The notes under the pieces were generated by a model. It did not search any database and was not told the DNA's origin. It was given only the letters and a program-made list of their open reading frames with translations. A program made the translations under genes and the position numbers. Positions 5,679 through 22,140 of a stretch of DNA of 64,000 nucleotides are shown here, piece after piece. This DNA comes from Candidatus Sericytochromatia bacterium (lineage in GTDB: Bacteria > Cyanobacteriota > Sericytochromatia > S15B-MN24 > UBA4093), in assembly GCA_036676495.1 (NCBI GenBank), contig JAKFCT010000069.1:13486-77485 (forward strand), written 5' to 3'. The number at the start of each line of letters is the position of its first letter. Within the stretch, counting starts at the first letter, position 1.

Positions 5679-5835
5679 AAAAAGAAAGCGCGCCAGCCGT
5701 TAGGAGCCCTGCTGGCGCTCGACTCGATACCCTCCTTGCGGAGGTTCAGGTCGGAGTGGCGGGAGGGGTACTCGGATAGAGGCACCCCAGCCCGCAAAGG
5801 TCCAAGATCGGGTCTGCGAACGGCTCCTGAACTAG
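5679..5835. repeat. Junction 1: terminator-like hairpin + tRNA-Pro 3'-end copy (att-like) + cryptic 28-codon tail
   Basis: gcgccagccgttaggagccctgctggcgc hairpin; ccttgcggagg hairpin; GGTCGGAGTGGCGGGA at 5749 matches the tRNA end at 22762. Confidence 0.8.
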
Positions 5836-5838
5836 CAG

Positions 5839-7323
5839 TCAGGGGCTAGTGACTTCGATATGGAAGCCGTCCCCCTCCCGTCGCAGAACTGCTTGTTGCG
5901 CGCGCAGCTTGAAGCCGGGCTGTTCGACCTCGAGGCTTCCTGAGGCGACCGAGGAGCCTGCGAGAAGCGGTTTTCCATTAACCCGGATCGCGCTCGGCTC
6001 CAGATTTCGGTATAGCTCGACCGTCAGTACCTTGGGCATGGTGTGTCGGATTGCGATGACGTTCTCCATCGTCAGCACCGGTTGTTTTGTCTTGGCGTGG
6101 GTGAACGCGAGAAGTTTACCTCGGGTGAGCCGGCGACCATCCGCGATGTCCCACGACTCGACCCATGAGCCGCCCATCGAGACGAGGTGCGAGGGCAGCT
6201 TCAGCGACAGCCGCGTTGCTCCCTGGCTGCGGAACTCCGTCATGACGTGCTCAATCTCACGGGACTCGGCTGCGGCCTGGGCTTGAAACTGAGCCTTGTG
6301 GCGCGACAGCTCTGCGTCGATGTTGTAGCGCTTCCCGAGTTGCTGGATGATTTCTTCGGGGCGCTGTTGCGGGCTCACGGCCTCCGCGAGAAGCCCATCC
6401 AGGGAGTCGACGTAATCCGAGAAGCGGCCTTTCCATTCTGGCATCAAGCGGTCCAAGAGATGGCAGATGGCCGCGCCCATGACGTAATACCGCGAGCGAT
6501 CCGGATCCTGCTGCTTCTCTAGCGCCGCTTTCAGCCTGGACGTCGTATAGGCGATGTGATTGGAGGCCCCCTTGGGATGGCTGCGCTCGAAGAACTTGTC
6601 CGTCAGGTACTGGGCCGTGCCTTCCGTTACCATCATGCCTTGCCGGTAATCCGCGTAATTCTTCGGGATCATGCTGTCGTGCTTCTGGCGTACCGCCAAG
6701 TAGAGCATGGCCCCGGTCTTGAGCGAGTTCGGGGTGCTTTCCCCGATGAGGCGTGCGAGAAGTGAGGCTTCGAGTTGCGTATAGGCGAAGTCTTCGGCGT
6801 CGAGAAGGCGCTCGTCGCCCTTTGCCATGCGGTGCATGAAATTTTCTTGGGCGGTGAAGTGAAAGGTTTCGTGGAACAGCGTCAGAAACTCGTGGATCGG
6901 ATCCAGGGTCTCAGCCGTCTTCGCTTGCGCCAATTGCTTGACGATGAAGACGCGTTCGCCGTCGACATGCTTTTCATCCCAGGCGTTATCCGTTGCGAGC
7001 CCGAGTCGTCTCACGGTTTCGCCTTCAAGGCGCTTGACGCTAGGCAACGATGGAAGCGGCCGCCCGTCTAGCCTTTTGGACGTGCTCGTCGGGGGAGCGT
7101 TCAACAAGTAGTAGGTGTCACCAGTCCCGTAAACCAGCGGGTAGCTGGTGAGATCGTAGCCAGGCCAGACGGGGCCTTCTTTCGCGCTGTTTAGGTAGCC
7201 GACGAGACGCGTCAGGACCACCTCATCGTGACTTGGCGCCGGTTTCGCCGCCGCCTGGATCGGTTGGGGCAGCATCGCAAGTAAGAGAAAGAGAGAGATG
7301 GCGAGTCGCTTCTTGATGCGCAT
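5839..7323 (-). CDS. Secreted putative zinc metalloprotease (gluzincin-like)
   Basis: Signal peptide; HETFH followed by EGTAQY. Confidence 0.65.
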   Translation of the reverse strand: MRIKKRLAISLFLLLAMLPQPIQAAAKPAPSHDEVVLTRLVGYLNSAKEGPVWPGYDLTSYPLVYGTGDTYYLLNAPPTSTSKRLDGRPLPSLPSVKRLEGETVRRLGLATDNAWDEKHVDGERVFIVKQLAQAKTAETLDPIHEFLTLFHETFHFTAQENFMHRMAKGDERLLDAEDFAYTQLEASLLARLIGESTPNSLKTGAMLYLAVRQKHDSMIPKNYADYRQGMMVTEGTAQYLTDKFFERSHPKGASNHIAYTTSRLKAALEKQQDPDRSRYYVMGAAICHLLDRLMPEWKGRFSDYVDSLDGLLAEAVSPQQRPEEIIQQLGKRYNIDAELSRHKAQFQAQAAAESREIEHVMTEFRSQGATRLSLKLPSHLVSMGGSWVESWDIADGRRLTRGKLLAFTHAKTKQPVLTMENVIAIRHTMPKVLTVELYRNLEPSAIRVNGKPLLAGSSVASGSLEVEQPGFKLRAQQAVLRREGDGFHIEVTSP

Positions 7324-7410
7324 CGTGGCCTCCGTGCTCGGTAGGTGGCTCTAGCAACATACCCGATCGCGACAAAAGAAAGGGTGCCAGCAAGCGATCG
7401 ACAGGGTTCC

Positions 7411-7565
7411 TTGACAGCGAAACGGGACATGTGGCAGGATGCGTACGGTCCATCCCGAGGAGGTCCCGACCGCGATGTAATTCCTGACATACGGCCATAT
7501 CCCCAGAATGCAGGCGCGCCGCAAGACGGTCGCAGCCGACGTGCAATGCGAGGACCCGTATGTCA
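7411..7565 (+). promoter_or_regulatory. Promoter and attenuator-like leader of the ABC-F gene, with a start-stop uORF
   Basis: TTGACA-18-CAGGAT; GAGGAGGT (7457-7464) then ATGTAA (7475-7480); 7485-7494 is complementary to 7556-7565. Confidence 0.65.
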
Positions 7566-9059
7566 CTTCTTTCCGCGAGCCGGGCGACGTTCCGGCATCC
7601 GGCCATGCCGGACGATCTCTTCTCGGACGTCACCTTCCACATTTCGCCTGGCGATCGGATCGCCCTCGTCGGCCCCAACGGGGCCGGCAAAACGACGCTT
7701 CTCAAGCTCATGACCGGTGCGCTCATGCTCACCGAGGGGGCCATCGTACGGCGGCGCGGCCTGCTCGTCGCGACGATGGACCAGGTTTCCGAAGCGCCTT
7801 CCGATCGATCTCTCTTGGCCCATGTCGCGGCAGCCGAGCCTGATGGCGCCGAATGGCGCGCCGTGATGGTGCTCGAGGGCCTGGGGCTGCCGGCCTCAAT
7901 CCACGACGCGCCATGGGGCACGCTCTCCGCGGGACAGCGCTCGCGCGCCATGCTCGCGGCGCTGCTCGTCGCCCCGGCGGATCTGCTCTTGCTCGACGAG
8001 CCGACCAACCATCTCGACGCGGAGGGGCGCGACTGGCTCGAAGCATGGCTGCCCCAGCAGGACGCCGCCATCGTGCTCATCTCCCATGACCGGGCGTTCA
8101 TCGAAGCCTCCGCCTCACGGATCTTCGAGCTGCGTCGCGGCAAGCTCACCGTTCACGAGGGTGATTACGCCTATTTCCGTGAAGCCAAGGCCCTAGCCGA
8201 TCGCCAGGCATGGGCTGCCTTCGAGGGGCAGCAGCGCCGCCAATCGGCGGCCACCCGGGCCGCGGCGAAACGCACGGCTCTTGCTCAGGATGTCGCGAAG
8301 GCCCCGAAAGGCCCAGGCCTTGGCGATAAGTCCTTTTACAAGGCCAAGGCTGCGAAGGTGGAAAAGACGGCAAAGATCATCCAGGCACGGGCCGAACGAG
8401 TCCCCGAGGCTCCGAAGCCGATCCTCGACGACGACATTCCCGTCCTGGATTGGGGGTTCGTGCGTCGATCGGGCGAACTGCCACTTGCGGTCAGGGGGCT
8501 CGCAAAAGCCTACGGCGATCACGGCCTCTTCGAGGGGCTCAGCTTCGACCTCGGGCGCGGCGAGCGGCTGGCCGTCCTCGGACAGAACGGAGCAGGCAAG
8601 ACTACCCTGATCCGAATTCTGCTCGGCCTCGAGACCCCGGACGCCGGGGAGATCGTCTGGGGGCATGGCGCTCAGCCCGGCTGGTTCGGGCAAGAGGCAG
8701 AGCAGCTCGACCCGGAGCTTTCGGCGCTCTCTAACCTGCTCACGGTGCGCCCAGACCAGGCCCGGGCCAGACTTCTGCTCGCTTGTCTAAGATTACGCGG
8801 GGACCGGGCATTTCAGCCGGTAGGTACCATGAGCGCGGGGGAACGCGCCAAGGTCGCACTCGCCAGGCTCTTGCTCAGCGGCGCCAACGTGCTCCTGCTC
8901 GACGAGCCCACCAACCATCTCGATCTCGATACCCGTGAGGCCATTGAAGCGACCCTCGCGACGTATCCCGGTGCGATCGTGCTCGTGAGCCATGACCGAC
9001 GCTTCATCGAGGCGATCGCCACGAGGACCCTCACACTGGGGTCTCCTGAGAGGGGGTAA
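7560..9059 (+). CDS. ABC-F ATPase, probably ribosome-protection (ARE) type
   Basis: Two ABC domains (GPNGAGKT and GQNGAGKT; LLDEPTNHLD twice), no TM segments, extended basic interdomain linker. Confidence 0.9.
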   Translation: MSLLSASRATFRHPAMPDDLFSDVTFHISPGDRIALVGPNGAGKTTLLKLMTGALMLTEGAIVRRRGLLVATMDQVSEAPSDRSLLAHVAAAEPDGAEWRAVMVLEGLGLPASIHDAPWGTLSAGQRSRAMLAALLVAPADLLLLDEPTNHLDAEGRDWLEAWLPQQDAAIVLISHDRAFIEASASRIFELRRGKLTVHEGDYAYFREAKALADRQAWAAFEGQQRRQSAATRAAAKRTALAQDVAKAPKGPGLGDKSFYKAKAAKVEKTAKIIQARAERVPEAPKPILDDDIPVLDWGFVRRSGELPLAVRGLAKAYGDHGLFEGLSFDLGRGERLAVLGQNGAGKTTLIRILLGLETPDAGEIVWGHGAQPGWFGQEAEQLDPELSALSNLLTVRPDQARARLLLACLRLRGDRAFQPVGTMSAGERAKVALARLLLSGANVLLLDEPTNHLDLDTREAIEATLATYPGAIVLVSHDRRFIEAIATRTLTLGSPERG

Positions 9060-9145
9060 CAGGGTCTGCCTGCTTCAGCGAATGAGCTCAGCCTACGCCC
9101 GGAACCGCTCATCGCGCGGGCAGCCAACGCTTGAGCTTCGTCCGC

Positions 9146-10591
9146 TCATTCGCGATCGATCGTGAGCAACTGCGGGGGTGTTGCGTCTGCCGGATAGATC
9201 AGCTGCAAGAGCACCTCGCGTCGTGCTTGAGGCGGAACCTCAATCACCTCGAACGGCGGTAGGCGCTGCCCCTGTCGCAGGGTGACGTGCGTCAGCCGGG
9301 TCACGTCCATGCCTCGCTCGTTCTTCCAATCCAGGCGAACGGTGCCACGGAACGTGACGGGAAGATTCGGAGGCTCGAGGTAGGTAACCGTTCGTCCTGT
9401 CGCACTCACGGGGTGCGAAAGCGACAGGGCGTAACGGCGCGGAGTCAGGTCAGGGTTCGATAGGGGAAGTCGCAGCCGGTAGGCCACCCCGTAGTTGCCG
9501 TGGGCCTGGTAAGCGGTCTCTGGGTAGCGCCGCAGCATGGGGGCACTTTGGACCTGGTCGGTTCCCAGGCGTTTCAGGTAGGTGGTCGCGAGCGGGTACG
9601 CCACGCCAGAGCCAGGCTGGGAGATCAAGGCCGACTCCCCCTCCGTGCTAAACGCCTCTCCTCGCCACTGGCTCCCGAGGCTCACTCCGGCCACACGACC
9701 AAACGTGAACCCACCCATCGGGGGAGGTTTTCCGGGGTCGAAGGGCGTCGCAGCCGCTTCACGATCCCCCGCCAGCTGGCCTAGTCGGATCAACGCCTCG
9801 TAGTCGTCCAGTTGAGGGACCAGGAACTCTCCGGTTTCGCTGCGCCTGGCGAAGATCGCAACCTCCGAGAGGTAGACCGGCCCATCGCTCTCGAAGTCGG
9901 CGAGAACGCTCCGGCCGTTGACCGCCGGGAGGCTCGGGACGTCGGTGGGAATGGGCCACTGGTAGAGGAGTTTGGATTCGCGGGGCTCCAAGCGGAACGT
10001 CTCGAGCGGCAAGTTAGACGTGCCGAGCAGCAACTCGGTGGCGACGCGATCGCCGGGCCCCGCGTAGACCTCACCCAGCGGGTTGGGCACGATCGGGTCT
10101 AGGGGTCTGAACTTGGCATCCGGCTGACTGAGGTAAGACGAACCCCTGAAGGGGACGATCGTGTGCGCCTGGTCGCTCAGGTTGGTCGCGACCAGCCCGA
10201 CGTAGAGAAGCCGCTCTCCGGGCGTCTCGTCCTTGGCAATGTGGTGGGAGAAGTACGAGAACTTCCCCTTGAAGGCATAGTCGAGGAAGGCCGGCCCATC
10301 GACCTCAGCGCTGGGAGGCAGGGTCGAAACCAGAATCCCTTCCCGCTGGACGATCTCAGGGCTGTTGCTGTTGAGCACCGGAGTCCCGTCGAGGCCGCCG
10401 GGAAGGGGAAAGACCGGCCGTTCAGTCGTCACGGGAACCTGCGGGCTCGGACTCACCTGCGGGTAGGGGGGCATTCCGCCTTCCCCTGGGGCTTGCGGGT
10501 GGCGAATCGTGCCGCATCCCACCAGGAACGAGAAGACCAACAGGAGCGGCATCCGAGATGACCTGGGTGGCACGAAAGTACGCATTCGCAT
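9146..10591 (-). CDS. DUF3370 family lipoprotein
   Basis: PLPGGLD..PVLNSNSPE..GILVST, YLSQPDA, AHGNYGV, YPADATPPQ; lipobox LVGC; start uncertain. Confidence 0.8.
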   Translation of the reverse strand: MRMRTFVPPRSSRMPLLLVFSFLVGCGTIRHPQAPGEGGMPPYPQVSPSPQVPVTTERPVFPLPGGLDGTPVLNSNSPEIVQREGILVSTLPPSAEVDGPAFLDYAFKGKFSYFSHHIAKDETPGERLLYVGLVATNLSDQAHTIVPFRGSSYLSQPDAKFRPLDPIVPNPLGEVYAGPGDRVATELLLGTSNLPLETFRLEPRESKLLYQWPIPTDVPSLPAVNGRSVLADFESDGPVYLSEVAIFARRSETGEFLVPQLDDYEALIRLGQLAGDREAAATPFDPGKPPPMGGFTFGRVAGVSLGSQWRGEAFSTEGESALISQPGSGVAYPLATTYLKRLGTDQVQSAPMLRRYPETAYQAHGNYGVAYRLRLPLSNPDLTPRRYALSLSHPVSATGRTVTYLEPPNLPVTFRGTVRLDWKNERGMDVTRLTHVTLRQGQRLPPFEVIEVPPQARREVLLQLIYPADATPPQLLTIDRE

Positions 10592-10829
10592 CGAGGGCCC
10601 CTTGCCACGATGGGCGGAAAACAGGGGTGGCATGCGACGCCATGGGCCGCTTCGTAGGTTCGGTTCATGAAAGCGCCGCGCGTTGGATCGTATGCTCCGC
10701 CTTCCGGTTCGGCCAGTTGCACTTTGCACCAGCCGGCACCGAGGGCCCGGACGTTTCTTCGATTGGCCTCATCGACTTGACGCCGCCAGGGCCCACGCGG
10801 AGCGTCCCTTACCGTCCTGCACCACCTCA

Positions 10830-10938
10830 GGCCGCTTGCGGAGTTTCAGGTCGGAGGAGCGGGATCGTCAATCCACGTGCCACCTTTCAGGCCACAAGGG
10901 TTAAAGACCTAGTCCACGAGCTGCTTTTGACGATCTAG
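10830..10938. repeat. Junction 2: tRNA-Pro 3'-end copy + cryptic 29-codon tail
   Basis: cttgcggagtttcaGGTCGGAGGAGCGGGATC; tail ends RVKDLVHELLLTI*. Confidence 0.75.
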
Positions 10939-10975
10939 GCGTTGGGGAAAGCTGTAATCGTACTCGAACCTAAGG

Positions 10976-12091
10976 TTAGTCGATTTGAGGACTTGCTGTG
11001 CAGTTGGGAACCGACACGGAGTCCATCTCACCGGGGAAGAACCGTTGCTTGAGCCAGAGCGAGACGTAGACCAAGGCCACCAGAGCGGGCACTTCGACAA
11101 GGGGACCTACGACCGCAGCTAAGGCTTCCGAGGATGCGATGCCGAACATCCCGACAGCCACCGCGATCGCCAGTTCGAAGTTGTTTCCCGCTGCGGTGAA
11201 GGATAGAGCTGCCGTCTCCTGGTAATTGAAGCCCAAGGCCTTGCTCACGGCGAAGGCGAGGAAGAACATCACCAGGAAGTAGAGCACGAGCGGAATCGAG
11301 ATGCGAACGACATCCACGGGGAGGCTGACTATCTTGCTGCCCTGCATGCTGAACATCAAGACGATGGTGTATAGCAGGCCGATGAGGGCCGTTGGCCCCA
11401 GCTTGGGCATCAGGACGTTGTCGTACCAGTCGCGTCCCTTCAAGCGAACGCCCACGATACGGGTGATGGCACCCAGGGCCAGAGGGATGCCGAGGAAGAT
11501 GAGGACGCTCTTGGCGATGGCCCACATGGAGACGTCGAGTGCAGTGGCCGTGCCGCCCAGCCAGACCGGTAGGACCGTCAGGAAGAAGTAGCCCAACACC
11601 GAGTACATCGCGATCTGGAAAAGGGAGTTGAGCGCCACCATGATGGCAGCGGCTTCGCTGTCGCCTTTCGCGAGCATGTTCCAGAGCAGGACCATGGCGA
11701 TGCAGCGGGCGAGCCCAATCATGATGAGGCCGGTTCGGTACTCCGGCAGGTCGGGTAGCATCACCCAGGCCAGGCTGAACATCACCACCGGTCCGAGAAT
11801 CCAGTTGAAGAACAGCGAGGCCCCTAAGAGCTTCCCCTTCGCCTTGAATGTTCCGAGGGTTTCGTAGCGGACCTTGGCGAGGACCGGATACATCATCCAG
11901 AGCAAACCGATAGCGATGGGCAGCGATACATCCGCCACCTGGACGGCATCAAGGGCCGGGCCGATACCCGGAAAGACCTTCCCGAGCAGAACGCCCAGCG
12001 CCATGGCGGCGAAGATCCAGAGGGGTAGGAAACGGTCGATGAGAGACAGCTTCCCGACGATGTTCGATACCTGAACGGCTTCTGTGGCCAT
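10976..12091 (-). CDS. acr3: Arsenite efflux transporter Acr3
   Basis: LSLIDRFLPLWI, GLARCIAMV, AAGNNFELAIAVA, GPLVEVP. Confidence 0.95.
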   Translation of the reverse strand: MATEAVQVSNIVGKLSLIDRFLPLWIFAAMALGVLLGKVFPGIGPALDAVQVADVSLPIAIGLLWMMYPVLAKVRYETLGTFKAKGKLLGASLFFNWILGPVVMFSLAWVMLPDLPEYRTGLIMIGLARCIAMVLLWNMLAKGDSEAAAIMVALNSLFQIAMYSVLGYFFLTVLPVWLGGTATALDVSMWAIAKSVLIFLGIPLALGAITRIVGVRLKGRDWYDNVLMPKLGPTALIGLLYTIVLMFSMQGSKIVSLPVDVVRISIPLVLYFLVMFFLAFAVSKALGFNYQETAALSFTAAGNNFELAIAVAVGMFGIASSEALAAVVGPLVEVPALVALVYVSLWLKQRFFPGEMDSVSVPNCTASPQID

Positions 12092-12092
12092 G

Positions 12093-12416
12093 CTACAGCT
12101 CCTCGAAGATGGCCAAAGGCTCCTTGGCGGTGTCAGTGGCCTTGTAGTAGTTCCAGCGGCCCTGTTTCCGAGCCGTGACCAGGCCTGCTTGGCTCAGAAC
12201 CGACAGGTGATGCGAGAGACTGCCTTGGGGCATCCCGAGCACTTCCATGAGGTCGCAGACGCAGACCTCGTGGTCCTTCACGAGGTGCAGCAACTTGAGG
12301 CGAACCTCGTCGCCCAGCGCCTTGAAGAGCCGGGCCTTGTCGGCCAGCCCGGCGGGCAACACGGTTGGGTTTGGACTCTCACAGCAGGCGGTGAGCTGCT
12401 TCAACTTCTTGAGCAT
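12093..12416 (-). CDS. arsR: ArsR family repressor
   Basis: FKALGDEVRL..EVCVCDL..SHHL..RKQGRWNYY. Confidence 0.9.
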   Translation of the reverse strand: MLKKLKQLTACCESPNPTVLPAGLADKARLFKALGDEVRLKLLHLVKDHEVCVCDLMEVLGMPQGSLSHHLSVLSQAGLVTARKQGRWNYYKATDTAKEPLAIFEEL

Positions 12417-12441
12417 GGGATCCCCTTGACAAGCTACGAAC

Positions 12442-12479
12442 CCATCGATTAATTTCGATTCATCGAGAAACGTCGATGG
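12442..12479. promoter_or_regulatory. Probable ArsR operator (two ATCGA-N6-TCGAT inverted repeats)
   Basis: ccATCGAttaattTCGATtcATCGAgaaacgTCGATgg between the divergent ars genes. Confidence 0.65.
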
Positions 12480-12526
12480 TTCTATTCTACACCCAGTTCG
12501 CTCAGATTCAAGCGAGGAGGTCCACC

Positions 12527-13309
12527 GTGCCCTTGCCCACTTCCCAAGATGAAATTCGCCAGGTCGTTCAGGAGCACTACGCCGAGGTCGCAAAAAGCGC
12601 GCAGAGCTGTTGCGCTCCATCCTGCTGCTCGCCCAGTTCGACAAGCTTGGGCTACACTGCAGAAGACCTGACCTCAGTTCCCAAGGGGGCCGACCTCGGC
12701 CTCGGGTGCGGCAACCCCCAGCTCATCTCTGAGCTGAAGCCGGGCGAGGTGGTGTTAGACCTTGGCAGCGGTGCGGGTTTTGACTGTTTCCTGGCCGCCA
12801 ACAAGGTCGGGCCGACCGGAATGGTCATCGGCGTGGACATGACCCCCGAGATGCTTGACCGTGCCCGTCAAAACGCCCACAAGGGGGGCTACTCCAACGT
12901 CGAGTTCCGTCAGGGGCTGATCGAGGACCTACCGGTCGAGGCTGGGACCGTCGACGTCATCATGTCGAACTGCGTCGTCAACCTCTCGCCTGCTAAGGCC
13001 CAGGTCTACCAAGAGGCGTTCCGGGTCCTGAAGCCGGGCGGGCGCATCGCCATCTCTGACGTGGTCGCATTCCAGCCGCTTCCCATCGAGATCCGGGAAC
13101 AGCTCTCACTTTACTCGGCGTGCATCGCAGGAGCCGCGACCATCGCCGACATCGAGGGCATGCTCCGTGATGCCGGTTTCGATAACATAAACATCCAGGC
13201 GAAGCTGGAGGAGAGCCGGATGATGGTCCAGGAGTGGGCGCCCGGCAGTGGATTGGAGGAGTACGTGGCCTCGGCGATGATCACCGCAAGCAAGGCGGTT
13301 GGCCAATGA
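12527..13309 (+). CDS. arsM: Arsenite methyltransferase
   Basis: LGLGCGNP, VLDLGSGAGFDC, SNCVVNL, CIAGA; GAGGAGG RBS. Confidence 0.93.
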   Translation: MPLPTSQDEIRQVVQEHYAEVAKSAQSCCAPSCCSPSSTSLGYTAEDLTSVPKGADLGLGCGNPQLISELKPGEVVLDLGSGAGFDCFLAANKVGPTGMVIGVDMTPEMLDRARQNAHKGGYSNVEFRQGLIEDLPVEAGTVDVIMSNCVVNLSPAKAQVYQEAFRVLKPGGRIAISDVVAFQPLPIEIREQLSLYSACIAGAATIADIEGMLRDAGFDNINIQAKLEESRMMVQEWAPGSGLEEYVASAMITASKAVGQ

Positions 13310-13713
13310 AACAGGTCCTGTTTGCCTGCATCCACAACACGGGGCGCAGCCAGATGGCTGAGGCATTCTTCAACCAGATCGCTGACCCCACCAAGGCACG
13401 CGCCATCTCCGGGGGAACTGAGCCGACATCGGGGATGAATCCCACCGTTCTCGCCGTCATGAAAGAGGTTGGCCTCGACTTGGTGGCCCAAGGGCATCAC
13501 CCGAAGCTCGCAGACCTGGACGCTCTCTCGGTCGGGGATCGGGCAATCTCCATGGGGTGTGGCGTGAGCCTGGCATGCCCTGCGCACTTGGGCCGGATGG
13601 AAGACTGGGGGCTGGATGACCCTAAGGGGCAGCCCATCGAGCGCGTCCGCGAGATTCGCGACGACATCAAGAAGCGAGTCGAGGGCCTGGTACGCGAACT
13701 TGGGGTTTTGTAA
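13306..13713 (+). CDS. arsC: Arsenate reductase (LMW-PTP type)
   Basis: CIHNTGRSQMAEA...DWGLDDPKG. Confidence 0.9.
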   Translation: MKQVLFACIHNTGRSQMAEAFFNQIADPTKARAISGGTEPTSGMNPTVLAVMKEVGLDLVAQGHHPKLADLDALSVGDRAISMGCGVSLACPAHLGRMEDWGLDDPKGQPIERVREIRDDIKKRVEGLVRELGVL

Positions 13714-13725
13714 GTTTTGAAATCG

Positions 13726-13759
13726 ATTAGGGGATGGGACGGTGATCCCATCCCCTAAT
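13726..13759. terminator. Hairpin after arsC
   Basis: attaggggatggga...tcccatcccctaat inverted repeat. Confidence 0.7.
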
Positions 13760-13770
13760 CCTTCGACATG

Positions 13771-13925
13771 AAAGAATGACCGCCAGCAGTGAGACGCATG
13801 CTGACGGGGAGCCTACAGTAAACCTCAGATCAGAAGCTCCCCGTCCCGTTATGCGATGAGGCAAGACGCCGAATTCCCAGGCAAATTGGGCGCAGGATCG
13901 AGTCCACAAGCGCCTCCTCTCCTAG
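13771..13925. repeat. Junction 3 (degenerate): hairpin + eroded att + tail remnant
   Basis: gaccgccagcagtgagacgcatgctgacgg; tcagatcagaagc; tail ...SQANWAQDRVHKRLLS* ends 13925. Confidence 0.6.
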
Positions 13926-14078
13926 GTTTGAGAACGGTTTGTTTTCGTGTGATATTGTTTATTCGAGTTTACGCTTGAATGCCTCGATACTCGATATCCA
14001 ACTCCCGCCATTTACTGGAACAGTAACGTTAGCGCGGGCTCGCTGGCACCATCCTTGCGGCTGGGCAAAGGGGGGAAA

Positions 14079-14507
14079 ATGGCAGTCAAGACCTATGGGA
14101 TCAATCACGTCGCCATCGAGGTGACGGACATCGAGAAGGCCGTGGACTTCTACACGGATGTCTTCAACCTGGAAAAACTGAACGAGGGGGAGGGCGACGC
14201 GTTCTTCAAAGTCGGCGAACACCAGTTTCTGGCGATCTTCGAGGTTGACGAGGTCAAGCCGGATCGCGCCCGTCACTTTGGTCTGATGGTTCGTGACGAG
14301 GCACAGCTTGCGGAGGTCCGCGCGAAGGTCTCGAAGAAATGGGGGCTGGTCTTGCATCCAGGGTTCAGGTGCGACTTCCACGATCCGTGGGGCAACCATA
14401 TCCAAGTTGTCGACCTGCATAATGAGTCGTTGGTCTGGTTGCTCCCCTACCAAGAGATACAGAAAGTCGGCATCACGTTTGAACGCGTCTCGGAATCGGC
14501 GCTGTAG
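14079..14507 (+). CDS. VOC/glyoxalase family protein
   Basis: GINHVAIEVTDIEKAVDFY..HFGL..DPWGNHIQVV. Confidence 0.9.
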   Translation: MAVKTYGINHVAIEVTDIEKAVDFYTDVFNLEKLNEGEGDAFFKVGEHQFLAIFEVDEVKPDRARHFGLMVRDEAQLAEVRAKVSKKWGLVLHPGFRCDFHDPWGNHIQVVDLHNESLVWLLPYQEIQKVGITFERVSESAL

Positions 14508-14612
14508 CTAATATCGGTGGCGTTGCCGCCAAGCAGCGGCTCGTCTCGGACGCAGCGAACAAACACCTGGACGTAGGCAAGGTTTCGCTTCCGACGCCGC
14601 TGAAATTCCCGC

Positions 14613-14766
14613 AAGAGAAAGACCGCCAGCAGTTAGAAGCCCTGCTGGCGGTCTATTCTTGATTCCCTTGCGGGATTCAGGTCGGAGCGGCGGGATGGTT
14701 ACTTTGAACCAGCCACCCCATGGAAAAAAGCTCCAGGAGCTGATCCACGAGCTGCTTATGGCCTGA
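14613..14766. repeat. Junction 4: terminator hairpin + tRNA-Pro 3'-end copy + 28-codon tail
   Basis: GGTCGGAGCGGCGGGAT (14680-14696) is identical to the tRNA end; 14613-14688 matches 18741-18816 at 75/76 nt. Confidence 0.9.
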
Positions 14767-15019
14767 TTTGCGGGCACTGAGCTTACTAATCTGAGTACTT
14801 GACGACGAAAGATCCCGGCGCTATGAAGTGCCTTGACTCATTCAGACCCTGGCAGGCCCCAAAGGGGGGGCCTACGCTTGCCGTGCTGTCACGTGTTTCC
14901 ACGAACGTCGTCCTGTGGAAGGAAGTCTTGTTTGAGCTGACACTGACGCTCGTGAGAAGTTCTCAGAGAAAGGTGTCCGGAGTCTTGACCCTGGACACCT
15001 TCAATGTACGCCGTAAAGA

Positions 15020-16582
15020 CTAGTAAATTAATCCCCAGTAGACGTCGAGGATCGCACGGTTATCGTAGTACCACGCGTTGTTCCGAAGTTTCGTGATGGC
15101 CGAATCGTTGTTCGTGAGTTTGCCCTGCTGGACGTAGAGCGCCAGCGCACCGGTCACGATGGGGGCCGCGAAGCTGGTTCCCCAGCCACCATGCATCCCT
15201 ACGTCGTAACCCGTGGTCTGGTTCGCAACTGCAACGTTGCTACCACCCGCGTAGATGTCAGCGAAGGTCATGTTCGCGGTACCGCTGCTGTACGAGGACA
15301 CGCTCCGGTCCGTATCATGCGAGCTTACGCCCAAGACCTCGCCATATCCTGCCGGATAGTTGTTCTGGTTCCCTTTGTTACCCGTAGAGGAAACCTGGAT
15401 CATCCCGGCGTCGTAGTTGGCCTTAATGGCACCGTACCAGCCCCACATCCAGGCCGGATACAGCCAGCTGGTTTCCGTGGTCGAGAAGCTCATGTTCACG
15501 ATCTTCACGCCGTCGTACCGCGCCTGATCCAGCGCTCGGGCGATCTGATTCATGTCCATGTTCTTCCCATCCTGGTCGGCGTACACGTGGTACGCGTAGG
15601 GAATGGCATGAGGAGCAACGCCCGCCGCTCCTGCAGAGTCGTTGAGCGCCGAGAAGATTAGCGAGGCGACGGGACGACCGTGACCCATTCCGACTCGAAT
15701 GTCCTGATTGTTGTTTTCAAAGTTGTAGCTCCAGACGCTTCCGGAGTTCCCCCAGAGCTGAGTCGCATAGGGCTCACCAGGAGCCATGAAGCGGTTGTCG
15801 ATGACCGCGACCTTGACGCCCGCTCCGTTAGCAAAGCTCCATGCTGCAGTGCTGGACTGGGGATTGATGCGGTTGCCGTAAATACCACCGGTGCCGTAGT
15901 CCCGCATGTACCAGAATTGGCTCGTCGAAGGCGTCACGCTGCCGTTACCCTCGTTGTAGAGGACCCCTGTGGCGTCGGTTCCAGCCTGATTGATGCCGAT
16001 GTGGAAGACCTTGTTCGCCTTCTTGTTCTTGTGGACTTTCAAGACTTGCTGCAAGGCCTTGGCCGCCCGCTTGTCGGAGAAGACCATCTCGCCACGGACG
16101 CCGACCTCTTCGGAGAGCTGAGGAAGCTGGTCCAGGGCGACTTTGCTGTCTTCAAAGGCGACGAGGTAGGTGTCGGTATAGCCGTCCTCGATGTAAGAAC
16201 TGTCGGGCATTGCCTTGAGCTTTTTCTCCTGCTTGACGATCCGCGCGCCGTACGTCTGCAGAAAGTTCGAGACCTCACCGTCGGTGGCGCCCTCCTCGAA
16301 CGTGACTCGCGTCTCGTCGGGGTAGAACGTGACCACTGTTTCAGGCTTATTCTTCAAGTAGTACTTGGACTCGCGGCCAAGAGACTGGGTTGAGACGTCG
16401 GACTCGAACGAGTAGGTGAACGGCTTGTCAGCCAACTCGGGAAGAACCGTACGAGGATTCGTGTGCTCCACCAGGGGAGCCCCTTTGACCATGTCCTTGT
16501 CTTGACCGTCTTGAATGCTTGAGGGCGGCACGCAGCCGACCAAGGCCAGGCTCAGGATTAGCGCGAGCTTCGTGAGTTTCAC
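15020..16582 (-). CDS. S8 subtilase lipoprotein
   Basis: Lipobox LVGC; catalytic triad VAVID / HGRPVA / GTSFAAP; lower GC than the flanks. Confidence 0.9.
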   Translation of the reverse strand: MKLTKLALILSLALVGCVPPSSIQDGQDKDMVKGAPLVEHTNPRTVLPELADKPFTYSFESDVSTQSLGRESKYYLKNKPETVVTFYPDETRVTFEEGATDGEVSNFLQTYGARIVKQEKKLKAMPDSSYIEDGYTDTYLVAFEDSKVALDQLPQLSEEVGVRGEMVFSDKRAAKALQQVLKVHKNKKANKVFHIGINQAGTDATGVLYNEGNGSVTPSTSQFWYMRDYGTGGIYGNRINPQSSTAAWSFANGAGVKVAVIDNRFMAPGEPYATQLWGNSGSVWSYNFENNNQDIRVGMGHGRPVASLIFSALNDSAGAAGVAPHAIPYAYHVYADQDGKNMDMNQIARALDQARYDGVKIVNMSFSTTETSWLYPAWMWGWYGAIKANYDAGMIQVSSTGNKGNQNNYPAGYGEVLGVSSHDTDRSVSSYSSGTANMTFADIYAGGSNVAVANQTTGYDVGMHGGWGTSFAAPIVTGALALYVQQGKLTNNDSAITKLRNNAWYYDNRAILDVYWGLIY

Positions 16583-16739
16583 ATGCGCTCCTTTACTTTT
16601 GCTATGGTGCTGTAATAGTGGTTGTTACGTCATATGCGTTATCATAGCAGTTGGATGGCCGCTTCTACAACTATCCTTGCGCTTCCCGTGGATGGTTTTG
16701 CCGAGCGTAACTTGGTCACGGACTTTGCTTAGAGTCGTG

Positions 16740-17224
16740 TGTGTTGATAACGACGCCGCGCAATTTTCTCCTTCCGCGATCCGGTCAGGCGTCCCAAGCG
16801 GCCCAGGCCGTGTAGAGCACCGACGTGATGTAGTACCCGGTGACGGTGTTGCTCGCCGCCCCTGCTTGCCACGGCGGTATCTCGCTATAGCTGAAACTTG
16901 GGCCTCCGTACCGTTTGACGTAGGATGCTGCCATCGCCAGGAAAATGCCAACGCTACCGGCCGAGAAGGCAAGCCCTCGCATAGGATCGCCTGCATACAT
17001 GTGTCCAACAGAAGGCAATGTCGTGACCAGAACGGTTGGTCCGACGTTCAGGTCTCCCTGGCCGACCGAGGTCCCTTTCACTTTCCCGGTAGGGCGAGTT
17101 GATAGGGTGAGACCTGCGGCAACCCAAGGATTGTGAGACAAGGAGGCTGCTGAAGTGACAGGCTCCGAGGCTACGGAACGGGTGGCAAGGAAGGACTCGA
17201 CAGGGCCCTGAGGATGCAGCGCAT
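16740..17224 (-). pseudogene. Frameshifted membrane/secreted hypothetical protein
   Basis: RBS and ATG at 17224, frameshift before SHNPWVAAGL..GHMYAGDP..WAAWDA; the frame resumes (YRIAEGEN) after a 1-nt insertion. Confidence 0.5.
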
Positions 17225-17617
17225 AGGGCCTCCGATCGAGACCATCGCTGGCTCATCAGGTCTTCGAGCTGGACGGCCCAAGACTTGCCCATGGCCCCTT
17301 ATGTATACGAGTTATCCATGTGGCTTCGCGGATCGGAGCTTCGGTCCGCTGCTGAGCGATCCACGGAAGTGCAGGGCGATCGAGACCGCTTTCATTGGTT
17401 CTGCCGGGACTTCTTGCCGTAGCGCAGCACGCCCACCTTCGTGAGCTGCATGCCCTGGGCGACGTGAAGGTGGGCGTTGCCGGCTTGCGGGCGCTAGAGC
17501 CTCTGCCTCCGGTTGAAGCGGCGCTTGCCGGCACACTATACTACCTGCGGATCGGGTTGGGTGGACGAAGATGCCGGCGCGACGCGCCCGAGATTGAGAC
17601 GTAGGAGAATAGCCACT

Positions 17618-18106
17618 ATGAAGAAAGCCATCATCTACCTGTGGTATGAGCACGACGCGGAGGAGGCAGCACACTTCTATGCCCGGACCTTTCCCGACAG
17701 CAAGGTCGGCGCGGTGCAACGGGCGCCGTCCGACTTCCCGAGCGGCAAGGCGGGTGACGTGCTGACGGTCGAGTTCACGGTGTGCGGCCTGCCATGCGTG
17801 GGCCTCAACGGCGGGGACGCGTTCAAGCAAAGCGAAGCGTTCTCCTTCCAGATCGCCACCGAGGACCAGGCGGAGACCGACCGCTACTGGAACGCGATCG
17901 TCGGCAACGGCGGTGAGGAGAGCGCGTGCGGCTGGTGCAAGGACAAGTGGGGCGTGTCATGGCAGATTACGCCGCGCGTCCTGACCGAGGCGATGGCCCA
18001 GGGTGGCGAAGTCGCGAAGCGCGCGTTCGAGGCGATGATGGAGATGCAGAAGATCGACGTCGCAAAGATCGAGGCGGCGGTGCGCGGCGAGACTAACCCG
18101 GGATAG
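17618..18106 (+). CDS. VOC family protein (PhnB/3-demethylubiquinone-9 methyltransferase-like)
   Basis: LNGG..FKQSEAFSFQI..CGWCKDKWGVSWQI. Confidence 0.9.
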   Translation: MKKAIIYLWYEHDAEEAAHFYARTFPDSKVGAVQRAPSDFPSGKAGDVLTVEFTVCGLPCVGLNGGDAFKQSEAFSFQIATEDQAETDRYWNAIVGNGGEESACGWCKDKWGVSWQITPRVLTEAMAQGGEVAKRAFEAMMEMQKIDVAKIEAAVRGETNPG

Positions 18107-18189
18107 GATCTCCAGCGCCTAGGAAACTAACGAGGGCCTGACCGTTTTCGGTCAGGCCCAGCGTGCGTGCCACTCCCGCCGAGAGGATC

Positions 18190-18735
18190 CCCCAGTTCTT
18201 GGTCCGGGCAAAAGTGCGAAATTGGACCTCACTGTCACGATGTAAACGCTGAAACGCCCACTTGGCGGGCAAGTTCAGCGGGGGCCGAAAGTCCAACGCT
18301 TTGTGAGGGCGCCTGAAGTTATATGGGGCTCTCTGGGCAGCGATCTTACGCCTGGCGTCGTCCAGAGACAAGAACCAGTTGGGGGCCAAGCACTCGTCCT
18401 GAACGCTGCCGTTGGAGGATTCGATGAACGCATGGTCCTTGGGGTTACCGGGCCGAGAGAAGTCCAACGTGACGCCGTTCTCATAAGCCCAACGGTCCAA
18501 GCCTTTCGAGATGAACTCGGGGCCGTTGTCGACACGATTGTTCTTGGGGACGCCACGCTGATGGCGAAGCCGCTCGAGGACGGCCACGACCTGCTCGCCC
18601 TTGAGCCCCTGGTCCACCTCGATGGCTAAATTCTCCCGGGTAATCGTATCCAGTACGGTGAGGGACCGAAATCGCTTGTCATTGAAGAGCGCGTCTGAGA
18701 CGAATCCCATGTACCAGCGCTCGTTCTCTGCATTG
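18190..18735 (-). mobile_element. IS3-family (IS407-like) transposase OrfB remnant
   Basis: W.MGFVSDAL (first catalytic D mutated), VDNGPEF, RPGNP..AFIES.NG, YN..RPH.AL; N-terminus missing. Confidence 0.85.
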
Positions 18736-18740
18736 AGGAG

Positions 18741-18816
18741 AAGAGAAAGACCGCCAGCAGTTAGAAGCCCTGCTGGCGGTCTATTCTTGATTCCCTTGCG
18801 GGAATCAGGTCGGAGC
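18741..18816. repeat. Junction 5: hairpin + att core, cut by an IS3-like terminus at 18817
   Basis: Near-identical to 14613-14688; followed by TGACCTGACCCCAATTACTTGGCC. Confidence 0.85.
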
Positions 18817-19072
18817 TGACCTGACCCCAATTACTTGGCCGAAGTGAATTGAACTCGGAATGTAAAGGGATCCTTCCAAACGGAAGGGCCTACGCGGGGG
18901 AGAGCGCTTGACGACCCCAAGCCCTGGCGCGGCCGGGGCGTTCATACGGAGGGTGTCGGGGGAAGCTCTTCGCGTAGACCCTACCATAAACAAGAAATGT
19001 CACGGCGTGAGGCCGCATGATCTTATAGGATAGCAGTCCGCGCGGCCGGACTAAAGCACGCATCGGCGCGAT

Positions 19073-21868
19073 CTACCCGGTGGTGCGTAGCCCCGAGGCG
19101 ATCGCGTTGACCGTCATGAGCACCCGCAAGAGGGCGGCCTCGGAGGCCTCCCCCTCGGCCCGGAGCCGGCGCCAGCGGCCAAGCTCGGCGATTTGCTGGC
19201 GGTGCAGGGCCCGCAAGGGCTCCTCGCGCAGGCGCAGCGTCTTGTGCAGCCGGGGCCGGCGCTCGGCAAAGGGCGCCGGGAAGACGGCGTGCAGCATGCG
19301 CCGGGTCAGCTCGTACTCGCCCATGATCTGGGTCATGGCCTGCTCGCGCAGCTCCGTGTCCTCCACCAGGCCGGCGTAGTCGCGCATGACGCGGGCGTCG
19401 GCGGTCATGAGGCTGGACTCGACGTTGCTGAGCACGTAGGTGAGGAACGGCCACCGGCTGGCTTCCTCGAGCACCTGCGCGAAGCCCTCGGCATCGCTTT
19501 CCTGCAAGCGGGCGAGGGCCGAGCCCACGCCAAACCAGCCCGGCAGGTAGAAGCGCGACTGGTTCCAGCTGAAGACCCAGGGAATGGCCCGCAGGTCGGC
19601 GAGCGTTCGCTTCCCGGTTCGGCGCGCGGGCCTGGAGCCGATGCGCCCCAGCTCCAGGGCATCGATCGGGGTCGCCTGGCCGTAGAAGGTCATGAAGCCC
19701 TCGGACTGGACCAGGGCCTCGTAGGCTTCCCGGCTCCAATCGGCGAGCTGGCGCATGCGCGGCGACAGCCCGCGCGGCACCGCCGCCCGGCGCCCGCGCA
19801 GGAGCGTGACCTCGGTGGTGGCCGCTGCGAGCAATTCGAGGTTGTAGGCGGCTTGATCCACGTGGGAGTACTTCTGGGCGATGGTCTCGCCTTGCTCGGT
19901 CATGCGGAGCTTGCCGGAAACCGTTCCCGGAGGCAGGGCCTCGAGGAAGCGGTAGGTGGGCCCCGCGCCGCGCCCGATGGTGCCGCCGCGCCCGTGGAAG
20001 TACTGGAGCGCGACGCCCAGTTCGCGCCCCACTTGCAGCATGGCGATCTGGGCCTCGTAGAGCCCCCACTGGCTCGCCAGGATGCCGCCGTCCTTGCTGG
20101 AGTCCGAGTACCCGATCATCACCTGCTGCAAGGGTCGATCGCCATGCAGGCGCGCGAGGCTGCGCCGCGTCATGGGATGCGCCAGGAAGGTGCTCAGGAT
20201 GCCCGGGCTGCGCTGAAGATCCTCGATGGTCTCGAACAAGGGCACGATCGGCAGGAGCGCGACGGGGCCGTCGGGACTCGCCACGACCAGGTCGGTTTCG
20301 CGGGCCAAGAGGTAAACCACCAGCAGATCCGAGAGCGAGCGGGTCATGCTCACGATCAGCGAGCCGATCCCGGGGCCATGGTGCGCCAGGTGCTCGGCCA
20401 GCACCCGGTACGTATCGAGGACCGCGTCGGCCTCCGGCCCGATGCCCCGGGTCGGGCGCGAAAACGGCCGCATGCGCTGAAGCTCGGCGTTGAGGAAGTC
20501 GAGCCGCTTACTTTCGGGCCAATCGGCAAAGTCCTCGCCGTCCAGGCCCCCGGCCTTCAGGAGCTGCGAGACGGCCTTGTCGTGGAAGACCGAGTTCTGG
20601 CGGATGTCCAGCTTGGCCAGGTGAAACCCGAAGGTCCTGAGACTGTCGAGGGCTTCCTGGACCTCGGTCTGCGCGAGCCGCCGGGCGCCCACCGCCTGAA
20701 GGGCGTCGCGCAGCACGATCAGGTCCGCTTCGAGCTCGGAGGCGAAGCGGTAGGCCCCCGGATGATCGAGAAGCTTCACCGCGTGGCTGCGCATCACGTC
20801 CACCGGCAGCCTCAGGATCATGAGGTTGAGGAGTTGCCGCCAGGGCTCCTCGGGGTTGCGGTCCAGGGCTTCCTGGCCCCGCGCTCCCAGCTGGCCCGCC
20901 ACCGTCCAGATCCGCTCCAAGAGCTCGGGAGGCGGGGCCTGGTAGCGATCTGACAAGCTGAGCTGCGCGGCCAGCTCCAGCAGCTGCCGCCGCAGCACCC
21001 GCATGGCCTGGAGCCTGAGGTCCGCGAGCGTCTCGCGGGTGACCTCGGCCGTCACCAGGGGGTGTCCGTCCCGGTCGCCGCCGACCCAGGTGCCGAAGCT
21101 CAGCAAGGGGCCCGTCGTCAGCTCGTCGGCCGCAAAGCCCGCTTCCTCCCAGGCCAGCCGCAGCCGCCGCTTCATCCCCGGCAGCGCCCGCGGGAAGATC
21201 TCGCGCAGGTAATGCTCGACGTTTCGCAGCTCGGAGGCCACGTCCGGCTTCTCGAGGAAGATCTCGCCCGTCCGCCAAAGCCTCTCCAGGACGCGCTTGA
21301 CCGCGTCGCGGTTCTCGCGCTCCTCGATCGGCGTCAGGACGTGCTGGCGCTCCTGGAGGTAGCGAAACAATTCCCGGTGATGCTCCAGCACCGTCGCGCG
21401 CTTGGCCTCGGTGGGATGCGCCGTCAGGACCGGCTCGATCGCGATCTCGGGAAGCGCCCGGGCGATCTCGTCGGACGCCAATCCCGCCTCCTTCAGCCGC
21501 GCGAGCGCATGCCCCCAAAGCCCCGGCTCCATGCCCAGGCCCGCCTCGGCCTCGTGACGCCGCCGGTGGTGCGCGAGCGTATTCTCCTCGGCCAGGTTCA
21601 AGAGCAGGAAGGCCATCGAGTAGCCCTGGTAAAGCCGCTCGGAGTCGCCCTCCGCGACGACGGGCGCCTCGTCGCTCAGCCACGGCACCGCCCGCGCGCC
21701 CTCCGGACCGAGGTCTTCGAGCACCTCGCGAAAGCACTCCAGCAGGAAGCGGAAATCCCGCTCGAACGGATCCGCGCCCGCGCTCGGGGCCCATACCGTC
21801 GTCAAGATCGGCGACCCTGCGGCGCGGGGCCGGCGGCTCTCGGGATTTGCTCGCTCGCTCATCGTCAC
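19073..21868 (-). CDS. ppc: Phosphoenolpyruvate carboxylase
   Basis: VLTAHPTE, WVGGDRDGHP, VMIGYSDSSKDGG, FHGRGGTIGRG, LRAIPWVFSW, GLRTTG. Confidence 0.97.
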   Translation of the reverse strand: MTMSERANPESRRPRAAGSPILTTVWAPSAGADPFERDFRFLLECFREVLEDLGPEGARAVPWLSDEAPVVAEGDSERLYQGYSMAFLLLNLAEENTLAHHRRRHEAEAGLGMEPGLWGHALARLKEAGLASDEIARALPEIAIEPVLTAHPTEAKRATVLEHHRELFRYLQERQHVLTPIEERENRDAVKRVLERLWRTGEIFLEKPDVASELRNVEHYLREIFPRALPGMKRRLRLAWEEAGFAADELTTGPLLSFGTWVGGDRDGHPLVTAEVTRETLADLRLQAMRVLRRQLLELAAQLSLSDRYQAPPPELLERIWTVAGQLGARGQEALDRNPEEPWRQLLNLMILRLPVDVMRSHAVKLLDHPGAYRFASELEADLIVLRDALQAVGARRLAQTEVQEALDSLRTFGFHLAKLDIRQNSVFHDKAVSQLLKAGGLDGEDFADWPESKRLDFLNAELQRMRPFSRPTRGIGPEADAVLDTYRVLAEHLAHHGPGIGSLIVSMTRSLSDLLVVYLLARETDLVVASPDGPVALLPIVPLFETIEDLQRSPGILSTFLAHPMTRRSLARLHGDRPLQQVMIGYSDSSKDGGILASQWGLYEAQIAMLQVGRELGVALQYFHGRGGTIGRGAGPTYRFLEALPPGTVSGKLRMTEQGETIAQKYSHVDQAAYNLELLAAATTEVTLLRGRRAAVPRGLSPRMRQLADWSREAYEALVQSEGFMTFYGQATPIDALELGRIGSRPARRTGKRTLADLRAIPWVFSWNQSRFYLPGWFGVGSALARLQESDAEGFAQVLEEASRWPFLTYVLSNVESSLMTADARVMRDYAGLVEDTELREQAMTQIMGEYELTRRMLHAVFPAPFAERRPRLHKTLRLREEPLRALHRQQIAELGRWRRLRAEGEASEAALLRVLMTVNAIASGLRTTG

Positions 21869-21964
21869 CCCCTGGCAAGGCCGTCCCCCCCACCTTAGGG
21901 GAGGACGCCCGGGTTGACGATGGTGCCTGTGTCGGATCTGGGGGGGAGTTTGGGGTGATTGCGC

Positions 21965-22135
21965 CTAAACGGGTGCCGCGACCCGCGCGTCGTCCGGCCG
22001 AGGCAGCGTGAACCAGAAGCGCGAGCCCTGGCCGAGCGCACTTTCTACTCCGATCGCCCCGCCATGCGCCTCCACCAGCGCCTTGGCAATCGACAGCCCC
22101 AGCCCGGTCCCCCCGTACGAGCGCGTCGTCGACGG
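21965..22135 (-). pseudogene. Orphan C-terminal fragment of a histidine kinase HATPase domain
   Basis: [40 protein letters not shown] with no upstream HisKA domain. Confidence 0.8.
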
Positions 22136-22140
22136 ACGCG

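Follow-up and report, generated by a model that had tools for sequence, protein, structure and literature searches.

A tandem cassette array at tRNA-Pro(GGG) in a Sericytochromatia genome and a possible alternative C-terminus for its serine recombinase

Introduction

Can site-specific recombination exchange the C-terminus of the very enzyme that catalyses it? The question is raised by a locus in the genome of a Candidatus Sericytochromatia bacterium (assembly GCA_036676495.1), of which we analysed a stretch of 64,000 nucleotides (contig JAKFCT010000069.1, positions 13,486 to 77,485); this whole stretch is called the window below, and coordinates refer to it unless another locus is named. Downstream of a tRNA-Pro(GGG) gene, the window holds several copies of the tRNA 3' end, which look like attachment (att) sites, and a remnant of a large serine recombinase (LSR). 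A preliminary description of this DNA had noticed that the att copies continue into a short frame ending in a stop, here called the tail, and had proposed that attP lies inside the LSR gene, so that the excised circle would encode an LSR extended by the tail and integration would swap this ending for another.

Serine integrases are one-way enzymes and normally need a separate recombination directionality factor (RDF). If recombination did swap the C-terminus of the enzyme itself, this would be a new control principle and, in addition, a design idea for genome engineering; if the tail is a relic, it is an ordinary att arm. As set out below, the proposal is partly supported, and we keep it as a tentative reading of the locus.

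Results and Discussion

Organization of the array at tRNA-Pro(GGG)

The tRNA-Pro(GGG) gene is intact (22762-22837, minus strand), as identified by both ARAGORN and Rfam, and serves as the site of integration. The repeated core, GGTCGGAGYGGCGGGA, corresponds to its last 16 nt: it is the reverse complement of the tRNA 3' end and comprises the 3' strands of the T stem and the acceptor stem together with the terminal bases. In the whole 4.1-Mb assembly, exact copies of the core are found only at 5749, 14680 and 22762, and a copy with two mismatches lies at 10849. Direct repeats of the tRNA-Pro 3' end delimit successive segments downstream of the intact tRNA, both here and in five relatives, and the segments of the window carry ordinary genes between the junctions, a glyoxalase among them.

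The junctions share one layout: terminator hairpins come first, then the 16-nt core, then a right arm, which at 5749, 10849 and 14680 is the tail. Alignment shows that the left arms are homologous at all junctions, with a large hairpin and a T-run on the minus strand followed by a small hairpin. Because the larger hairpin has a 12-bp stem and its T-run follows the stem on the minus strand, it looks like the tRNA's own terminator, renewed at each junction. Identity with the tRNA stops after GGGA or GGGATT, which puts the crossover at the T-loop or to its left, a position deduced only from the end of this identity.

Positions 5749-22837 thus hold a series of small integrative cassettes, arranged in tandem and in part decayed, that were inserted at the 3' end of tRNA-Pro(GGG). 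A junction consists of a P arm, which renews the tRNA 3' end and the terminator hairpins, the 16-nt core, and a P' arm. The tail of the preliminary description is the P' arm of one family of cassettes, which we call type A.

A coding-like distal block in the tail

Reading on from the GGT of the core at 5749, 10849 and 14680 gives three ungapped peptides, just as had been described, which end in TAG at 5835, TAG at 10938 and TGA at 14766; the end of a degenerate copy at 13925 was confirmed as well. A profile search combined with hand inspection found 17 type-A-like tails in six genomes of one family. Beyond the window's three, 14 related tails are spread over contig C66 of this genome and five relatives, and the tail profile search did not find any in the other 41 of the 47 genomes of the class. 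The stop falls on the same alignment column in 8 of the 17 copies and one codon later in three more, with TAG, TGA and TAA all in use, and the conservation of the tail ends exactly at the stop. A 3-nt insertion in one tail (G001_1074) keeps the frame, and one degenerate copy with a 1-nt insertion retains the distal block and the stop. The peptides end in ...LLLA, LLMA or LLLAA.

Differences at third codon positions had been taken as a sign of protein-level selection. We therefore examined the ratio of nonsynonymous to synonymous differences per site (pN/pS) by the Nei-Gojobori method, using 11 tail copies (eight full-length, three partial), all six frames and 2000 column shuffles. For the distal codons 17-28, pN/pS is 0.44 in the frame originally proposed, 0.94 and 1.41 in the other plus-strand frames, and 0.48, 0.88 and 1.14 in the antisense frames, the value of 0.48 belonging to the frame that shares the wobble positions; none of the 2000 shuffles was as low as observed. 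For the proximal codons 6-16, the ratio is 1.11 in the same frame, 1.17 and 0.89 in the other plus-strand frames and 0.88-0.94 antisense, and 1532 of the 2000 shuffles were as low. A codon-like signal of the suggested kind is thus seen in the distal 12 codons and is absent from the proximal 11. Evolution of the distal 12 codons and the stop as a coding 3' end would account for the low ratio, for the stop at a fixed column and for conservation that ends at the stop. Two antisense frames were considered and rejected: the exact antisense frame lacks stops in 7 of 9 copies, yet its ratio is 0.88, and the wobble-sharing frame, in spite of its low ratio, has stops in 6 of 9 copies.

The distal block is also an imperfect inverted repeat of the core and the next 5 nt, and it might instead be conserved as a nucleic-acid element, either as one side of a long-range stem (with G-U pairs) in plus-strand RNA or as a DNA feature of the P' arm. 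Such an element could act in recombination or at transcript ends, or could be left over from the symmetry of the acceptor stem. RNAalifold does pair columns 2-21 with columns 61-86, and 86% of cells pair, compared with 32-51% after the partner has been shifted by 1-3 columns; the stem is used in 5 of 9 single-sequence folds, with z = -3.19 for the copy at 14680. However, the mean z of the nine folds is only about -0.7, two of them being positive, the covariation term of RNAalifold is unfavourable (+0.76), 10-38 of 500 shuffles attain the observed pairing values, and the stem was derived from the very sequences on which it was scored. It has no Rfam match at E<=1. A stem also leaves unexplained the varying stop codon at one column, the 3-nt insertion and the C/T toggles at synonymous positions; toggles opposite G fall on columns 81 and 82, which are synonymous, while column 76 has hardly any and columns 77, 79 and 86 have none. 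We rank this explanation below coding and consider it unlikely.

If the tail is coding, it could also be a small gene of its own, in which a 23-residue peptide starts at an ATG after the core and the GGAG of the core serves as the ribosome-binding site. The statement that only one copy has its own ATG was wrong: the copy at 14680 has one at 14695-14697, and so do four other intact copies elsewhere (G009, G008_8908, G001_14208 and G000:C66) and two altered ones. The GGAG lies 7 nt upstream of this ATG, and a public gene call (P0001) spans one such junction. On the other hand, the remaining intact copies have AGG, ATC, ACG, ACC or ATT at the ATG codon, the codons right after the ATG are unconstrained, the stretch from the upstream terminator hairpin to the ATG holds nothing resembling a promoter, and P0001 starts upstream of the core rather than at this ATG. 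A separate small gene is for these reasons very improbable.

Recombinase frames that run into the core

To which gene could a coding 3' end of this kind belong? From the left, a single gene reads into the core, that of the recombinase, which is an LSR. The LSR at locus L079 is intact, with the Pfam domains Resolvase, Recombinase and Zn_ribbon_recom; the five homologues in our protein collection (one of them the G034 gene) all have Resolvase and Recombinase, and four of the five have the zinc ribbon. In the window, a C-terminal remnant of about 206 aa is left (22142-22761, plus strand), which lacks a Pfam match and is 62% identical to residues 391-596 of L079. The LSR adjoins tRNA-Pro in G009, G034, G046, G019 and L079, and the flank of L079 is tRNA-Pro/tRNA-Phe, the same site as in the window.

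As had been reported, the remnant has no stop before the core; its open frame (21959-22888) crosses the core in the frame read as VGAAG and continues through the tRNA. We compared 13 LSR frames: the window remnant, G009, G034 (the same as P0021), G107:C180, G133:C31, G046, G019, the G008 remnant, L079, P0018, P0019, P0020 and P0022. In 11 of the 13 there is no stop before the core, so that the crossover lies inside the open frame of the LSR, as had been proposed for attP. Five of the LSRs (L079, P0018, P0019, G107:C180 and G046) enter the core in the frame of the tail. They belong to the group ending in RYGGR, like L079, the closest intact LSR, and their linkers from RYGGR to the core are 30, 30, 32, 32 and 35 residues long, so that the length differences are multiples of three nucleotides.

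In the public gene calls P0018-P0022, the protein runs 5-70 residues past the core, and in four of the five the antisense tRNA is translated, for example as ...GGIRTHDPHYPKVVRYQAALRP. The same read-through region occupies 22762-22888 in the window and 4795-4980 in L079.

LSR-based scans returned two loci among metagenome contigs (the G034 contig and L079), five among genome contigs, none beyond those already known, and in viral contigs one distant, irrelevant match. A search of viral contigs with a 20-nt tail pattern gave no match.

Evidence that weighs against a recombinase-tail fusion

Several observations speak against a tail that continues the recombinase frame. While L079 and four others enter the core in the tail frame, six do not: the window remnant, the intact G034, G019 and P0020 enter in the VGAAG frame, and G009 and P0022 in the SERRD frame. 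For the window remnant, the frame is due to a 1-nt length difference from L079 in the small hairpin. A further frame of the 13 ends in a stop some 100 nt short of the core; the remnant in G008 is in the tail frame, yet meets a TAG in the hairpin loop. The linker of roughly 100 nt, which comprises the two hairpins, the core and the proximal tail, is without protein-level constraint (the proximal 11 codons with their pN/pS of 1.11 included) and shifts frame between copies. By hand counts, the distance from loop to core is in the tail frame at about 2 of 10 tail-bearing junctions, which is the level expected by chance.

Nor did we see an intact LSR followed by a type-A tail among the loci examined. 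At three junctions the LSR frame does run into an arm other than the tRNA (P0020, which is intact, and G107:C180 and G133:C31, which are cut by the contig end), and these arms are of other types, with no tail; in one of the three the frame gains over 200 aa of junk, and in another a stop precedes the core. In the intact G009 element the P' arm is of a different kind, and no ending like that of the tail is seen there. The assemblies of the tail-bearing genomes hold no L079-like LSR, and the copies in the window are without a cognate LSR. In addition, a variant with a 1-nt deletion and no stop occurs in two genomes (G001_8571 and G003_8839), which implies that coding capacity is unnecessary for the tail to persist.

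Protein searches point the same way. With alignment A3, a word-index search found no protein of 85-2000 aa that carries the tail at E<=10, and HMMER against 1.84 billion representatives gave P0001 as the sole tail match and no long protein; the representatives are chosen at 50% identity, and a fused form could be hidden among the cluster members. P0001, an open reading frame (ORF) of 54 aa that spans the G008 junction, is the sole member of its cluster. We discarded the remaining 16 HMMER matches, each of which covers just the Gly/Ser-rich part of the profile in several separate stretches. A search of the ESM Atlas with the tail part of P0001 reached a best score of 0.83 and gave no lead.

The preliminary description had also seen a resemblance to the LSR C-terminus upstream of junction 2. 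This finds no support: tblastn with four LSRs against the window at E<=1 gave nothing there, and no LSR remnant was detected at this junction.

Another explanation is that the tail is a relic without present function, either a drifting captured copy of the tRNA-Pro or the 3' end of an ancestral gene, conserved by the youth and shared ancestry of the cassettes. Past the core, the alignment to the antisense tRNA is better than that of shuffled sequences for 4 of 11 tails (z 2.6-4.1), the tail at 5749 differs from its G001 counterpart by the nonsynonymous changes L>R, H>C and L>R, frameshifted or stop-less tails persist, and most tails lie in cassettes without a recombinase. Yet the other 7 of the 11 show no tRNA similarity past the core (z -1.2 to 1.8), and the Rfam tRNA model is blind to the tails at E<=1. 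As the similarity is patchy, we reject the tail as a diverged tRNA copy. Moreover, neutral drift would not yield a pN/pS of 0.44 with 0 of 2000 shuffles as low, nor would it hold the stop at one column through all three stop codons. A relic without present function is in our view improbable.

A possible exchange of the recombinase C-terminus

Taking these results together, we tentatively suggest that the tail combines two parts. Its first ~30 nt would be the attP half-site of the recombinase, conserved as DNA and not as protein, and the last 12 codons with the stop would be an alternative 3' end of the LSR gene. This end would be used when the gene precedes the P' arm, that is, in the excised circle or behind another cassette, and would go unused when the gene precedes the tRNA. 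Recombination would then exchange the last ~25 residues of the LSR: joined to P', the protein would end in a short amphipathic, Leu-rich helix, ...KVQDLVHELLLA, whereas fusion to the tRNA would give it a longer ending translated from the antisense tRNA. The tails in the window would be relics in cassettes that lack an LSR and that probably moved in trans, with at least one of them decaying. We consider this combination possible, though short of probable.

What the helix might do to the LSR is speculation; effects on stability or on directionality can both be imagined. That the tail is a degron is a guess, prompted by the Leu-rich ...LLLA/LLLAA endings, by the tmRNA tag of the host, which ends in ...AALAA, and by the precedent of mycobacteriophage BPs (see below). 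The tmRNA gene lies at L085 1595-1654 (contig C47), where it is cut by the contig end, and its tag, read by eye, ends in ...GGRQAAALAA.

The boldest form of the idea is an LSR that rewrites its own last ~25 residues, with an ssrA-tag-like ...LLLA helix when joined to P' and an antisense-tRNA read-through when joined to the tRNA, and that would thereby switch stability or directionality free of an RDF. We find this doubtful. If true, such a self-rewriting LSR could also explain how mini-cassettes without an LSR are handled in trans.

Movement of cassettes among related genomes

Comparable arrays are present at tRNA-Pro in G008, G009, G001, G003 and G004, with cassettes (modules) of 1.1-9 kb. 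The largest number of junctions is found in G001, which has six besides the tRNA; G008 has three exact cores and one copy with two mismatches besides the tRNA. In the relatives, every tail copy belongs to an array found downstream of this tRNA; the tail on contig C66 has no tRNA within the 15 kb examined.

That the cassettes move independently is suggested by the one that carries the tail and a 494-aa gene. In G001 this cassette adjoins the tRNA and is 81.6% identical to the window at the nucleotide level. In the window, it is fused to the ABC-F cassette by a deletion at about 7360-7420 that removed the core and the greater part of both arms, and G001 has the two as separate cassettes in opposite order (L073 11800-12000 and 15800-15910). 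This reordering is indirect evidence of movement. The arsenic cassette of the window has about 1.3 kb at 84% identity to a cassette in G001. The locus can be seen as an integron-like stack of very small, reshuffled cassettes, with arsenic resistance, an ABC-F ATPase and a peptidase among the cargo.

The junction on contig C66 (L075 7386-7720) is complete, with hairpins, a degenerate core and an in-frame tail ending in TGA, and no tRNA is nearby. About 150-250 nt past the junction are homologous to the region after 14766, and L075 8078-8641 matches window 16728-17287. We interpret it as a fragment of the array that was relocated or duplicated. The G003 array (L074) holds two full tRNA-Pro(GGG) genes, at 9697-9772 and 16524-16598, about 6.8 kb apart and with cores on both sides; it seems that one element there brought or duplicated a complete tRNA.

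Other right arms fall into types B, C and D, which are alike over only about 30 nt and have no common ending, and were rejected as equivalents of the tail on these grounds. A tail-like match in G003:C22 is a false positive that lies antisense within a real gene. About 70 nt past the tail stop are conserved in three copies (window 14770-14835, L036 about 8756-8820 and L075 about 7553-7620); this stretch contains a promoter-like TTGACG, 17 nt and TATGAA, directed into the cassette.

Other features of the window

The window can be followed from left to right through the array. The left arm of junction 1 (5689-5748, minus strand), identified from its sequence and the arm alignment, has the long hairpin with a minus-strand T-run of the tRNA terminator type and the small hairpin, and is probably the original host flank, or B arm. 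Junction 1 itself (5749-5835, plus strand) consists of the core (5749-5764) and the type-A tail, that is, the P' arm, with its TAG. The 494-aa cargo ORF follows on the minus strand (5839-7323) and has no Pfam family. At 7360-7420 a dead junction retains a hairpin stub and the end of a P' arm, the core being deleted, and beyond it lie an ABC-F type ATPase (7560-9059, plus strand) and a DUF3370 protein (9146-10729, minus strand).

Junction 2 (10849-10938, plus strand) has the core with two mismatches and a type-A tail of 29 codons with TAG; its left arm is without the terminator hairpin. The cassette with the arsenic module (10976-13309) encodes an ACR3/SBF transporter and ArsR, both on the minus strand, and a SAM methyltransferase of the ArsM type on the plus strand. 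In the degenerate junction that follows (13781-13925, plus strand), a hairpin remnant is left, there is no core, and the distal tail block ends in AQDRVHKRLLS and TAG.

The P arm of junction 3 (14621-14679, minus strand) comprises the hairpin with the 12-bp stem (14621-14653), the minus-strand T-run and the small hairpin; read in an LSR-type frame (QQLEAL), it has a TGA 32 nt before the core. Junction 3 (14680-14766, plus strand) combines an exact core with a type-A tail, has its ATG right after the core (GGAG, 7 nt, ATG) and ends in TGA.

Between this last junction and the LSR remnant lies a mixed segment (15020-21868) with an S8 peptidase (minus), a 3-dmu-9_3-mt family protein (plus), an IS-type rve transposase (18093-18830, minus) and a PEP carboxylase (19073-21868, minus). 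The segment is probably rearranged; the presence here of the transposase and of a housekeeping-type PEP carboxylase suggests IS-mediated rearrangement within the island. The P arm at the tRNA (22697-22761, minus strand) again has the terminator hairpin with a minus-strand T-run, together with a small C6/G7 hairpin.

Comparison with known systems

The closest relatives in architecture are the ssrA islands of Dehalococcoides, as described in the portion of that report available to us (PMC3146451). There, the serine recombinase DsiB inserts at the T-loop region of the ssrA 3' end, and the islands lie in tandem between short direct repeats of this 3' end, with extra conserved sequence beside the repeat; many islands have no integration module, and mobilisation in cis or in trans is assumed for them. 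The present array shares with them an LSR, a tRNA-like 3'-end target, tandem arrangement, short direct repeats, members without the module, and a crossover at or left of the T-loop. It differs in its target, which is tRNA-Pro(GGG) and not ssrA, in its host from a Sericytochromatia-type lineage, and in the much smaller size of its modules, which go down to 1.1 kb. The DsiA/ParB/Mom module of Dehalococcoides was not seen in the ~3 kb upstream of the L079 LSR, where nothing but the recombinase could be recognised: three ORFs are without a Pfam family, and one other has a weak PD-(D/E)XK match. The conserved arm measures about 87 nt here, with a distal part that behaves as the 3' end of a coding sequence. 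An integrase frame that crosses the att site is not mentioned for the Dehalococcoides islands in the same portion of the report.

The tycheposons of Prochlorococcus (bioRxiv 10.1101/2020.12.28.424599) are cargo elements stacked beside tRNA genes, where they leave partial tRNAs and degenerate remnants. According to the accessible text of that preprint, 910 of 937 use tyrosine recombinases and a minority an LSR, and many carry replication genes. Stacking next to a tRNA, the remnants, and an LSR as in their minority are common to both systems; a coding tail at the att site is not described for tycheposons in that text.

How the tail might meet the recombinase as DNA can be compared with the geometry known for LSRs, whose attP half-site measures 25 bp and in which the zinc-ribbon-domain motif of attB is shifted 5 bp toward the centre (PMC3783163, in the part consulted). 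Compared with its place in the tRNA, a TTYGAACC motif is displaced 7 nt away from the core in the tails at 14680 and G008_8908, only 2 of 17; this offset is a lead and not a test.

For what the boldest form of the idea requires, an engineered serine integrase fused to a whole RDF protein (PMC5737554, as far as its available section goes) suggests that an added C-terminal segment can change the behaviour of a serine integrase, although here the segment would be a natural tail of 12-25 residues. Our literature search found no attP site within a serine integrase gene, and cases that it did not retrieve may be in print. The closest mechanistic precedent for the putative switch is the integration-dependent immunity of mycobacteriophage BPs, in which, as the available part of the report sets out (PMC4557955), attP lies inside the repressor gene and integration alters the C-terminus of the product, an effect demonstrated experimentally with a tyrosine integrase. 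In our case, the gene would be that of the serine recombinase itself, and the putative switch is read from sequence.

The locus extends the picture drawn from ssrA islands and tycheposons to a little-studied, non-photosynthetic sister lineage of cyanobacteria. The array itself is of a known type; what is new is the coding-like arm, together with a recombinase whose reading frame consistently stays open across its own site.

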